Notes: generated from the sequence alone by a model not told the origin. A stretch of 64,000 bases of DNA from Pirellula sp. (GCA_021300155.1 JAJTID010000041.1:12608-76607); one strand, 5' to 3'; shown: positions 32,699 through 59,155, counted from the first letter of the stretch. Made by a program: numbers and translations.

Positions 32699-35600
32699 TC
32701 ACGGCGTTGTGCTTATCGTTGCAGAACTCAAAGCAGTTGTGCCACTTCGTTTGGTTCGGAACTGTGGACTTGCGACGATCGTTTCGAACGCCGATTGAAT
32801 CTTATCGTCATTCCGTCGTAGGTTATCAAGCATTTCTTCGACCAGTAGATCATCGGGAATGATTAGACTTCTTCCTAAGGCATAAGACAACAAACTCTTG
32901 CAGAAATGCCTTCGGAAATCATTGAGCCTATCTTCCAGAATAAAGGACCTGAGACCTGCTAAACCGCTAGCTTGTCGCCCGTTCGGTAGAACAGCATCGA
33001 CCAACACATCCCTCCCACCCAAATCTTTCGTCCGCGGTTTTCCAATGGGATCGAAACCTTCTAGCAATAAACCGATCGCGTCAAATCGATTGTGACACGC
33101 AGCACACGAAGCGTGCTCTCGATGCTTTGCCAGCAACTCTCGAAGCGTTAAATCCCCAAGCTGATGTTCGGACGCAGGCAATTCAGGCACATTCGGTGGC
33201 GGTGGCGGAATAATCTCCCCAAGCAGTTTACGAACCACCCAATAGCCTCTCTTCACCGGACTCGTGCGTTGCCCCGGCGAATTCTGCGTCAAGAAGACTG
33301 CCATCGATAACAACCCACCTCGCCCTACTTTCGAAGCGTCCTCAACTCTCTCCCAACGGTTTGTCGACTCGTGAGGAATCTCGCCGATGCCATAATGCTG
33401 AGACAACGGACCATTGATGATCACATGGTCGGATTGAAGTAGTTCCAGTATCGAACCGTTTCGCCTCAAGAGATCCAGAAAATACTCGACAGGTTCGTCT
33501 GCCATCGATTGCCGAAGCGTATCGCTGAACGTTGGAAACTGACCTCGATCGACTCCGTTGTGATTGTCAAAACGCCGAAAGTCTAACCAGTTTCCCATGA
33601 ACTCGAGAACCATCCCTCGCGCTCGCTCATCGGCTAACATCTTCTTCAACAACGACTTGGAGTCAGTACTGCCAGCGACGCCATACAATGACTCGATTGC
33701 CTTTTGTAATGGGCTATCCGGTTTGCTTGCCCACAAGAAATAACTCCAACGAGACGCTAGTTCGACTTCCTTTAGTTCCGTTACTTTCTCCGACGAACAT
33801 TGCAAATCCCATCGATAGAGAAATGTTGGGGAGACTAGAATAGAAACGAGAGTGTCTTCTATCGCTGATCGATGGTCAGCGTTCGGCAGCGATAGGCACC
33901 GATTGTAGAAATCGACTACAGAATCGCGTTCAGACCGAGTCATCGGCCGACGATACGCAGATTGGGCGAACTCGAGAAGAGACTCCAACTGCATCGGTTT
34001 CGATTCCTCGAGCCGGGATTCCAATGTACGAATTTGACGATTCATATCCTCGAAGTGATACTCCACCGCTTCGATGGCTCGCGCATTTGCTTTTCGCGAA
34101 CGAACCTTATCTAAGTAAAGCTCTTTGAATCGCTGTATGACTGGTTCGGAGGCAGCAGATCGATCCTCGGCACGAATAAATTGGAACTGTGCATCGTTGA
34201 TGAAGGATGCTTCTGCCCGCTCAAACCAAATGAAACCGCTGAACTGCCTCAATGGCGCGAGTGCAATAAAATCTAACTCGCCCCACAATCGATCTAACTC
34301 TCGCTTCTTCTCATCCGAAAGAATCAACTCACAGAGCGGTTGATCGTCACGGAAGTATCCCATCATGCTATGAAAGCCGGCACTTAAAAGACGTCCTTTT
34401 CCTTCACGATCCGACTCTTTCGGATCAACGTTCGCCCTACCACGCTCCAGGATAAAGAAGTTGTCTGGGAATACGGAACAAAAAGTTCGGTACGATGACA
34501 AAACGGCCTCGCGTTCTTCGTTTGTTCCTGTCTTGAGCAGCATGCGATCTTCGCTCGGCGCCATCGCGTTTTCTCCATCCAGCGCCAGATCTTCTTCGGG
34601 ATACAATCGGCGATGCGAAGCCATCTCGCGATTCTTCCAAAGGATGAACGACTGCGTTCCTCCGTGCATTCCCGGACTTCGAACATTGGAGGCTCGCCAT
34701 CGAAGCTTCGACCGTGTATCGCGAATAAACTTTGCGATCTCAGAACATTGTTTTCGAGAGATTTCGATATCAACAGGATTAGTCGGTAACTGTTTCCAAT
34801 GCTCGCGAAGCTTTGCCATCGGACCAACCTGCACACTTGGATCATGAAGCGATTTCCAAATGATCGACAAGTACTTTTCACTCAATCCAAATTGAGACGC
34901 TGCTGACGCAAGAAGTTCCTTCTCGCGAGCATTATCTCTCTGCAACTCTGCTCTAGTTTGTTCATGGAGTTCCGTTTGCACTGTCCAACAAGCAAACAAA
35001 TAGGCTTCATAGCTAACCGGCTGCCGCAAATAGAAATCCACGATTCGTTGCACACAATACTTGTCACGATCGGTATCTGTGACCACCGGAAACGGGGCGA
35101 ATCGAATGCCATCTGGCGTAAGTAGCATGTGGTCTGCGACAAACCGCGCTGCATCGATGTACTTGGATACCAGAGCTGGTGAAATTGTAAGGGACTCTGA
35201 GGAGTTATCGAACCCAGATTCATTAGCGGGATCGATCGGAAAATTCTTTGTTGGGCGTATGTCGACTCCAGTCAAATCCCGAATCGTGTAGTTGTACTCG
35301 GCGTTGTTGAGCCGCCGCGTGCTGATCAATCCAGGGTCACCTCGAAGTCGCTCCGCTTCGGATTTTCGAAAAAGCGAAGTCCATTCTTTCAATTGCTGTT
35401 TCTCGAGTTGAGTTGGTTGCTGAGCATCGACAGGTGGCATCTCCGACTCGTGAACACGCGAAACGATCGCTTGCCATGTTGACCAAGTAGAAGCAACATC
35501 GCTAGGGCTTCGGAAGATCGTTGTATCAAGCTTTGCCTCAGGAGATTCACCCGAGTGGCAATCGGTGCAATACTTTGTGAGGAACGGCCGAACTCGTGTC

Positions 35601-57432: not shown

Positions 57433-58410
57433 CTAGCTCGGTAAAGTGCCGAAACTATCGAGTAAGATTTGCACGACAAGCCGCCAACCATCGACGAGCA
57501 CAAACAATAGCAATTTGAAAGGAGTAGATATCAACGCTGGAGGCAGCATCATCATCCCCATAGAGACAGTGACAGAGGCAATCACGATATCGAGGATCAA
57601 GAAGGGCAAATAAATTTTGAATCCCATCAAGAATGCAATTTTGAGTTCACTCAACATGTATGCCGGCAACAGAACTTGAAGCGGAACATCTTCGAAAGAC
57701 TTTGGCCCAGGGCTGTCTGGCGAATAGCGACTATAGAAAAGAAAAACGTCGTCGTGATTCTCCGCCATGTCGATTTGCATCGCCATAAATTCCCGTATGG
57801 GGGTAGTTCCTCGATCCCAAGCCTCCGAGGTACTCATCTTCGAACCAGGTTTCGTGTAGGGCTCAACCGCTTCGTTGTATACACGGTTCCAGACAGGAGC
57901 CATGACAAAGAGCGTGATGAAAAGTGAGATCGAAGTAATGACTTGACTGGGCGGGAGTTGTTGCGCGCCGAGGGCCTGTTTGAGTAGTCCGAACACAACG
58001 ATGATTCGAACATAGCAGGTTGTCATCAACAGAATGGCAGGTGCTAAGCTCAGCACTGTCAGGAGCAGCAATATTTGTAGGGAGCTTGATAATCCGCGAG
58101 GGCTCAACCAAGCTTCGGGGCCACCTGCCAATTGGTTGGTTAGTTGCTCAACGGCATTTGTTCCTGCGTTTCCGCTCGCCGTTTGAGTTTCCTCCGTGGA
58201 CGAACGCACGGAGCTATTTTCTCGTATGTTTTGGGTGCGCTGGAGGACGGGATCGGAAACCGACGAAGAAAAACCAGATTGACCGAACGCAGGTTGAACA
58301 AGCAGCGCGTTGCAGAGAAACAGAACAAGGAAAAGGAGGAGCCCGAACTTGCAATCGCCTGCGGCAACAGGATGGCTCTTGAGCTTCGAGGATCTGCAAT
58401 TTGCTAGCAT
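57433..58410 (-). CDS. fliP: Flagellar export gate FliP (long N-terminal extension)
   Basis: '[12 protein letters not shown]', 'QQLPPSQV', '[10 protein letters not shown]', 'MGMMMLPP', '[11 protein letters not shown]'. Confidence 0.95.
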
Positions 58411-58580: not shown

Positions 58581-58609
58581 TTGACGCAAAATTCGGTGCA
58601 TACTATGCT
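58581..58609 (+). promoter_or_regulatory. Sigma70-type promoter for the tRNA
   Basis: TTGACG (58581-58586), 17-nt spacer, TATGCT (58604-58609); the tRNA starts 15 nt downstream. Confidence 0.6.
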
Positions 58610-58624
58610 TACGCGAGAAGTTTT

Positions 58625-59114
58625 GGGACCGTAGCTCAACGGTTAGAGCAGGGGACTTAAGCGGTTGGCACCTAAAGCATTTTGAGATAGTCAGACGAAC
58701 CGGCGACAAGAGTTGCTTGGTGGTCCAGGAGATCCAAAAGCCAAGGTGCTACCATATGGGTTGCTCTTTGAGGAGCATACGATCTTCAAAGGGTAGAATC
58801 TGTCAAACTCGGGGAAGGCTTCGCGTTGAAATACGTATGTTAATCCCGAGCCAAGCTGCAACTAGTCAGCCTTTCCTAGCGAGTAGACTTGACAAAGTCG
58901 TTTTGCGGGAACGGTGTTCCGTTGCGGAAGGTGTAGAGACCAGACGGCAGACACTGGATACGTTTTTGGTCAAATGGCTCCTGAATAAGTAGCTAGATGA
59001 CCTGGGCAGATACATGTGAAGGTATGGTCCAGACCACAAACCCGAAAGGGGCGGCGAAAGCCGTAGTCGGTATGCATAATCCCTTGGTTGCAGGTTCGAA
59101 TCCTGCCGGTCCTA
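58625..59114 (+). tRNA. Intron-split tRNA with CAU anticodon, most likely tRNA-Ile2 (lysidine type). Exons 58625-58657 and 59075-59114
   Basis: Joined exons fold as a standard cloverleaf: acceptor GGGACCG/CGGTCCT-A, D arm GCTC/GAGC, anticodon arm GGGGA-CT CAT AA-TCCCT, short variable loop, T arm GCAGG-TTCGAAT-CCTGC. CCA is not encoded. It lacks the initiator signs (1:72 mismatch, G29-G31). Confidence 0.9.
58658..59074 (+). ncRNA. Group I self-splicing intron (IC3-like), 417 nt, no homing-endonuclease ORF
   Basis: The 5' exon ends in U and the intron ends in G. P caaactcggggaa (58804-58816), Q aatcccgagc (58842-58851), R gtgtagagaccagacgg (58931-58947), S gaaggtatggtcc (59018-59030). P7 GACCA/UGGUC, P3 UCUGUC with GACGGCAGA, GAAA-capped hairpins at 59041-59064. 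Confidence 0.92.
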
Positions 59115-59125
59115 CTTTCGAAAAA

Positions 59126-59155
59126 CCACGTGTTGTTTTGCGTGGATATTTTCTT
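59126..59155 (+). terminator. Possible intrinsic terminator or processing hairpin after the tRNA
   Basis: ccacgtg-ttgttt-tgcgtgg followed by atattttctt; weak stem with G-U pairs. Confidence 0.3.

Follow-up and report, generated by a model that had tools for sequence, protein, structure and literature searches.

The gene at positions 58625-59114 of the window (the whole 64,000-nucleotide stretch of Pirellula sp. DNA analysed here) is, judged from its sequence, highly likely to be the tRNA-Ile2 gene of this organism, with anticodon CAU and split after U33 by a 417-nt group I intron of type IC3. AUA decoding very probably depends on splicing of this gene, with two odd CAU tRNAs encoded in a tRNA array as a caveat. 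The mapped features are collected in Table 1.

Table 1. Features of the split tRNA gene, its intron and its flanks (positions counted from the first letter of the window)
Feature	Position	Strand	Remarks
FliP-family flagellar export gene	57433-58410	-	divergent from the tRNA gene, 214-bp intergenic region between them
Promoter-like site TTGACG-N17-TATGCT	58581-58609	+	9/12 consensus positions; ends 15 nt before G1
5' exon of tRNA(CAU), G1 to U33	58625-58657	+	identical to the 5' part of intron-less orthologues; acceptor 5' strand, D arm, anticodon-stem 5' strand, C32 and U33
Putative group I intron, 417 nt	58658-59074	+	no conserved ORF; last nucleotide omega-G 59074
Hairpin inserted in the P1 loop (L1), 91 nt	58663-58753	+	predicted, -35.2 kcal/mol, z = -4.1
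Putative internal guide sequence	58756-58762	+	GGUU (58759-58762) would pair with exon G30 A31 C32 U33 as P1
P2 hairpin (CUUUGAGGA / UCUUCAAAG)	58766-58791	+	motif positions, predicted fold
P3 5' strand (58797-58804), J3/4, P4 (58808-58814), P5 hairpin, P4' (58844-58850)	58797-58850	+	Rfam alignment, motif positions, minimum-free-energy fold
P6 with extended hairpin	58851-58931	+	Rfam alignment, motifs, fold; length differs among relatives
P7 5' strand AGACCA (58937-58942) and P3 3' strand GACGGCAGA (58943-58951)	58937-58951	+	core motif common to Azoarcus-type and fMet-type introns
P8 region, two predicted hairpins	58953-59015	+	variable in relatives
J8/7 (GUGAAGGUA) and P7 3' strand UGGUCC	59016-59030	+	Rfam alignment, motif positions
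P9 domain	59032-59068	+	short stem around two GAAA-capped hairpins
3' exon, 40 nt, C34 to A73	59075-59114	+	anticodon CAU, A37 A38, anticodon-stem 3' strand, UGGUU variable loop, T arm, acceptor 3' strand, A73
Terminator-like hairpin	59126-59145	+	with U-rich tail to 59155

The 33-nt 5' exon (GGGACCG UA GCUC AACGGUUA GAGC A GGGGA CU) and the 3' exon (CAUAA UCCCU UGGUU GCAGG UUCGAAU CCUGC CGGUCCU A) were joined and submitted to ARAGORN, which folded them into a standard cloverleaf of 73 nt with anticodon CAU. The joined tRNA displayed a G1.U72 pair, G27-G30 followed by A31-U39, a UGGUU variable loop and A73; CCA was not encoded at the 3' end of the gene. A contiguous gene equal to both exons was encountered in five intron-less congeners (one with a C/U change in the D loop), and in four further ones the differences were confined to the T stem, plus position 72 in one of the four. 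Since these congeners carry a contiguous gene matching the joined exons, the exon junction was fixed, by sequence comparison, at U33|C34, and excision of the intervening sequence would restore an intact tRNA. An earlier sequence-only reading of the window had listed the G1-U72 pair, the run of G followed by A31-U39, the UGGU variable loop, A73 and the TTGACG-N17-TATGCT site, and had taken C34 for the first nucleotide of the 3' exon; all of these features are present, and the intron-less congeners place C34 just there. Neither a second nor an intron-less copy of the exons was found in the host assembly (6.46 Mb in 260 contigs, 99.99% complete); an intron-less gene elsewhere, which would have told against that reading, was thus not encountered.

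By its motifs and predicted fold, the sequence between the exons belongs to the group I introns of bacterial tRNA genes (IC3). Rfam model RF00028 (Intron_gpI) aligned over its full length (model positions 1-253) with 30.8 bits and an E-value of 8e-6, which is under the curated gathering cut-off of 50 bits. According to Williams (2020), the seed of this model consists of 12 sequences of which 0 are bacterial, and his own search ran at 18-20 bits. The match was the single one of its type in the whole genome, and no other group I core of the P7/P3 type was found there. An internal ORF of 91 aa had no Pfam family.

The guide sequence was assigned by comparison. GGGUUGC was taken as such because it is conserved and covaries with the exon, unlike earlier candidates: GGUCC (58723-58727), a CCUAAG motif and a UAUGGU motif were dropped, as they were not conserved among 17 related introns. 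P1 would thus consist of G30.U, A31-U (or G31-C), C32-G and U33.G at the splice site, while the adjacent AUG (58756-58758) would be able to pair with C34 A35 U36 as P10, the G before the P1 guide being free for C34. In the shortest related introns the guide begins just 5-10 nt past the splice site; the 91-nt hairpin in the P1 loop of the Pirellula intron is a lineage-specific expansion. Shorter planctomycete introns, inspected by eye, also displayed a hairpin at the P1-loop position, with different stem sequences. For the P9 stem, drawn as GACCAC (59032-59037) / GUAGUC (59063-59068), just three pairs hold in all sequences and the remaining register is ambiguous.

Homologous introns of 240 to 449 nt were found at the same site in 16 relatives. 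Among 24 congeners, 14 had the same two exons split by an intron of 298-449 nt and nine had an intron-less contiguous gene, while two genomes from other families of Pirellulales contained introns of 240 and 275 nt. A class II aldolase gene is the downstream neighbour of the split tRNA gene, and it adjoins the tRNA in five intron-less and 13 intron-bearing relatives. Since this neighbour is the same with and without the intron, the pattern looks like presence and absence of an intron at one locus. The suggestion of the sequence-only reading that the intron is locked in was therefore too strong: nine of the 24 congeners have the intact, intron-less allele, with the same downstream gene wherever this could be checked, so that the intron is not locked in on an evolutionary scale.

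All 17 Pirellulales introns displayed a U at position -1 and a terminal G (here U33 and G59074). Species-representative genomes with the core motif AAGGYGTAGAGRCYAGACGGCA, which comprises the P7 and P3 strands, numbered at least 120 and belonged to many phyla. For 80 listed loci the splice junctions were re-derived such that a U preceded the 5' site, the intron ended in G and joining of the exons gave a valid tRNA. Most of these 80 were tRNA(CAU) genes, with a few Leu or Arg tRNAs. About 55 contained the intron after U33 and belonged to Planctomycetes, Chloroflexi, candidate-phyla bacteria, Omnitrophota, Bdellovibrionales and others; about a dozen, from betaproteobacteria, were of the Azoarcus type, with the intron after U36 (CAU|AA).

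Covariation was apparent in three helices. In P1, exon A31 or G31 changed together with U or C in the guide: nearly all planctomycete-type introns examined displayed GGGUUGC with an exon ending in GACU, and nearly all others GGGCU with an exon ending in GGCU. At P7, 37 introns had a C:G pair and 41 a U:A pair, with no mixed case. Across the 17 Pirellulales introns, 97.7% of the cells of the P9 domain were paired; for one pair, seven distinct sequences had C:G and six had U:A, and the remaining changes led to wobble pairs. A catalytic core P3-P4-P6-P7-P9 is thus conserved with compensatory changes, and the covariation in P1, P7 and P9 supports the view of a working ribozyme.

Two kinds of larger introns were met in the same survey. 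In two fMet-tRNA genes of uncultured bacteria (L083:2589-3032 and L131:1092-1535, both on the + strand), the intron was located at the U33|C34 site and contained a 147-aa ORF starting 3 nt into the intron; L131 stems from an Omnitrophota MAG, and its ORF matched the homing endonuclease I-Ssp6803I (PDB 2OST, E 4.5e-49). From the position of this ORF, the P1 loop would be a place where this intron family accepts inserts, and it is also the site of the extra hairpin in Pirellula. Eight Ile2-like tRNA genes from Bdellovibrionales, Anaerolineales, Patescibacteria, Gracilibacteria and unclassified MAGs carried introns of ~610 nt after U33, with ~400 nt between the 5' splice site and the guide, and without a long forward-strand ORF started by ATG (table 11). 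These may contain an endonuclease gene that has decayed or is alternatively coded, or else a large domain of RNA.

Assignment of the tRNA to Ile2 was based on several comparisons. In Silva et al. (2006; PMC1635315), G3, A3, C70 or T70 are absent from Met and fMet genes and hence mark Ile(CAT), while C4-G69 and C5-G68 are frequent in Ile(CAT). The split tRNA displayed G3-C70 and C5-G68, in agreement with these discriminators against Met, and its orthologues in other families of Pirellulales displayed C4-G69 and C5-G68. The latter two pairs are determinants of E. coli TilS, and in Burkholderia G3:C70 serves TilS as an identity element (PMC12514573). In a BLAST search of 5,426 E. coli genomes, the best listed matches of the split tRNA were all annotated as tRNA-Ile; the one inspected, of the ileX type, adjoins mug and has anticodon CAT. 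Best-matching tRNAs annotated in phages were left out as evidence, identical sequences being labelled either Met or Ile. Among the E. coli tRNAs compared, global identity was 79.5% for Ile2 but 68.9% for metT and 56.8% for fMet; it averaged 77.3% to eight betaproteobacterial hosts of Ile2 introns. With E. coli ileX/ileY the tRNA has in common the CAU anticodon, 73 nt before CCA, G27.U43, a UGGU(C/U) variable loop, A37 A38, A73 and C5-G68; the E. coli tRNAs differ by C3-G70 and C4-G69, an encoded CCA and the lack of an intron. The marks of an initiator were missing from the split tRNA, which has a pair at 1:72, C:G at 11:24 and a G-C run broken by A31-U39; the true initiator gene was located on contig C89 and displayed 90.8% identity to E. 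coli fMet. The Ile2 identity proposed from the sequence alone was thus borne out by G3-C70, by the ileX-type matches and by the global identities.

The genome provides the context expected of an Ile2 gene, with a TilS gene, use of AUA codons, separate Met-like and fMet genes and no tRNA with anticodon UAU among the 68 tRNAs detected by ARAGORN. TilS, whose catalytic domain E. coli also has, scored 163 bits with TIGR02432 against a cut-off of 93.6; it is short (367 aa) and aligns with about the first two thirds of the full-length E. coli model. AUA was encountered 5,602 times in 1,752 long ORFs, i.e. 4.96 per 1000 codons or 9% of the Ile codons. Since neither an intron-less copy nor a tRNA(UAU) was found, nor a second canonical candidate for Ile2, reading of AUA very probably depends on splicing. 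The link between AUA and splicing drawn by the sequence-only reading is supported to this extent, and the count of other CAU tRNAs, which it had named as a check, gave fMet on C89, a Met-like tRNA on C161 and two non-canonical genes in an array on C156, duplicated on C219, which form the caveat.

These two genes, in tandem and 69 and 71 nt long (C156:32709-32777 and 32778-32848), have abnormal D arms. The arrays that contain them (C156:30384-33401 and C219:7918-9847) harbored 12 and seven tRNA genes, respectively, within about 3 kb and 6-35 nt apart, several with shortened D arms. Of the 40 Pirellula congeners searched, 17 gave a match to the array DNA, often in multiple copies; its flanks were ordinary planctomycete genes (WD40 and Ser/Thr-kinase) rather than phage genes. 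One alternative is that the split gene is indeed tRNA-Ile2 while an array CAU tRNA is also a substrate of TilS and IleRS, which would make the split gene redundant. The array CAU tRNAs are 89-97% identical in the closest array copies of other Pirellula and sit among tRNA genes, and C3-G70 would be compatible with Ile2, as E. coli tRNA-Ile(CAU) has this pair. Against this, the first array tRNA was nearest to E. coli Met (61.8%) and the second to fMet (64-67%), both with less than 59% to Ile2, and their D arms depart from the norm. Moreover, no array match was found in 23 of the 40 congeners, including the intron-bearing G003, G017, G022 and G023, in which the split gene is the only Ile2-like candidate, G022 having one more non-canonical CAU tRNA; in G017 and G023, a CAU-tRNA pattern with standard T loop retrieved only the Met-like and the split gene. 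Such a backup is therefore considered improbable.

Even less probable is an exchange of roles, in which the split gene would be elongator tRNA-Met and the tRNA on C161 the real tRNA-Ile2, so that splicing would matter for internal AUG instead of AUA. C161, the other canonical CAU tRNA, is ambiguous in its identity, being nearly as close to E. coli Ile2 (71.1%) as to Met (72.4%); since its best E. coli BLAST matches were not tRNA-Met, it is labelled Met by C3-G70 and elimination only. [quoted passage not shown] (PMC1635315). The split tRNA nevertheless has G3-C70, reported absent in Met and fMet, whereas C161 has the Met-type C3-G70. It is 10.6 points nearer to E. coli Ile2 than to Met, and its identity to the Azoarcus-type Ile2 hosts exceeds that of C161 (67.9%). 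Length, UGGU variable loop and G27.U43 are common to the split tRNA and E. coli tRNA-Ile(CAU), and the orthologues from sister families have the E. coli TilS determinants C4-G69 and C5-G68, all of which argues for Ile2 as the identity of the split tRNA.

That the interrupted gene is a dead relic whose intron no longer splices, AUA being read otherwise, is scarcely credible: the intron does score under the Rfam cut-off, its P1 loop bears the extra 91-nt hairpin and splicing is deduced from sequence, but the exons have the same sequence as uninterrupted congener genes, core, guide, U at -1 and terminal G are conserved across the 17 Pirellulales introns with compensatory changes, and TilS is kept while AUA accounts for 9% of Ile codons with no alternative decoder found.

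The idea of a split tRNA-Ile2 is already known. Williams (2020) gives four classical classes of bacterial tRNA introns, Leu.3Ug, Arg.5Ug, fMet.2Ug and Ile2.5Ug, extended to 21 in his account, and precedents for the present case are the Azoarcus tRNA-Ile intron, classes fMet.2Ug and Ile2.5Ug, and the entries for Isosphaera and Singulisphaera discussed below. In the naming of Williams (2020), where position 2 stands for an insertion after U33, the Pirellula intron would be 'Ile2.2Ug'.

Such a split arrangement has had its model in the Azoarcus pre-tRNA-Ile intron since 1992. That intron resembles the Pirellula one in its host (tRNA-Ile2 with CAU), in its insertion into the anticodon loop and in the absence of an ORF; the core elements GAAGGUGUAGAG-AC(U/C)-AGACGGCA, GUCAAAUUCGG, GCCGAGCCAAGC and UGAAGG.AU.GUCCAG are common to both. 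In both, too, the reader of AUA would exist only post-splicing, and annotation tools overlook the gene. As described in PMC2241849, the Azoarcus intron is located after U36 (CAU|AA) and its guide pairs with CAU, in contrast to the Pirellula intron, located after U33 with GGUU predicted to pair with GACU; C34 is thus the first nucleotide of the 3' exon in Pirellula and part of the 5' exon in the Azoarcus type. Introns of the latter type are about 190-225 nt long versus 417 nt, and their P7 pair is U:A instead of C:G. The Pirellula intron also has the long P1-loop hairpin and larger P6 and P8.

The intron of Synechocystis PCC 6803 tRNA-fMet (655 nt, class fMet.2Ug, encoding I-Ssp6803I) has the same site after U33, in a CU|CAUAA context, and the same core motif as that of Pirellula, and relatives with an I-Ssp6803I-like ORF of 147 aa were located exactly at the U33|C34 site. 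The cyanobacterial host is however an initiator (1:72 mismatch, A11:U24, exon GGCU), with guide GGGCU instead of GGGUU, and the endonuclease gene of the Synechocystis intron has no counterpart in Pirellula.

Chan et al. (2021), who presented tRNAscan-SE 2.0, encountered 36 genomes seemingly without fMet or Ile2, owing to group I introns undetectable by tRNAscan-SE. Their File S5 lists Isosphaera pallida ATCC 43644 and Singulisphaera acidiphila DSM 18658 with 'possible group I intron in Ile2', which is the same explanation of a 'missing' tRNA-Ile2 in the same phylum as Pirellula. These entries are one-line notes without junction, structure or distribution, and Pirellula is not among them. A Singulisphaera MAG included here had the intron after U33 and the same exons as Pirellula. 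[quoted passage not shown]

The following course of events may be proposed. Transcription from the promoter-like site of the gene would yield a precursor of about 500 nt, in which G30-U33 would be held in P1 by pairing with GGUU, with U33.G at the cleavage site, and in which C34 would be bonded to the terminal G and able to pair in P10. Free guanosine would cut after U33, C34-U36 would dock on the adjacent AUG as P10, and the 3'-OH of U33 would attack after the terminal G (59074), joining the exons. Only after this ligation would there be an anticodon loop in which TilS could convert C34 to lysidine and t6A37 could form, and which IleRS could use. Because recognition by TilS involves the stems as well as the anticodon region, lysidine formation and isoleucine charging should come after splicing, and the resulting lysidine-AU anticodon would permit the reading of AUA by Pirellula tRNA-Ile2. 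Self-splicing, its precedence over TilS and the essentiality of this step are what we infer from the sequence comparisons. A more far-reaching scheme is speculative and very improbable: the Ile2 introns after U33 would form a separate lineage, from an fMet.2Ug intron moved into the Ile2 gene via one U/C change in the guide, and in Pirellula the enlarged P1-loop hairpin, together with the position of C34 next to the 3' splice site, would turn splicing into a control point tying AUA decoding to guanosine-nucleotide or Mg2+ status, instead of the intron being a neutral passenger.

As the FliP gene upstream is on the minus strand, the tRNA would need a promoter of its own. Two promoter-like sites were seen in the region versus 0.7 expected; the TTGACG-N17-TATGCT match is a candidate that is statistically weak but well placed relative to G1. 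Its sequence is not conserved in relatives. In several Pirellula congeners, another tRNA gene (3' end GGTTCAAGTCCCC...CCAC) directly precedes the split tRNA-Ile2 gene, with no promoter-like site there. With an upstream tRNA in some cases and a promoter-like site in others, the transcription context of the gene therefore varies within the genus.

The sequence-only reading had held that standard scans may miss this tRNA, and they either missed or mislabelled it. ARAGORN with default settings and Rfam at gathering thresholds detected nothing in the window. With introns allowed, ARAGORN called 58625-59114 a tRNA-Leu(UAA) with a 417-nt intron after position 37, a miscall due to its assumption of the canonical intron site. 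Among its other long-intron calls, two that were inspected were coding sequence and a third was a 91-nt tRNA-like sequence.

The main value of the case is in annotation. Pirellula genomes will look as if they were without an AUA-reading tRNA despite TilS and the use of AUA, and pipelines that use tRNA sets to deduce reassigned codons or an incomplete genome would be led astray; automated ones could gain a false tRNA-Leu and still miss Ile2. The current understanding of group I introns and of AUA decoding is unchanged by it. Pirellula would join the lineages with a ribozyme ahead of a presumably essential decoding step, and in many phyla one intron family with one insertion site serves two kinds of host, initiator tRNAs and Ile2, whose exons differ by a single base that is matched by a single-base change in the guide.
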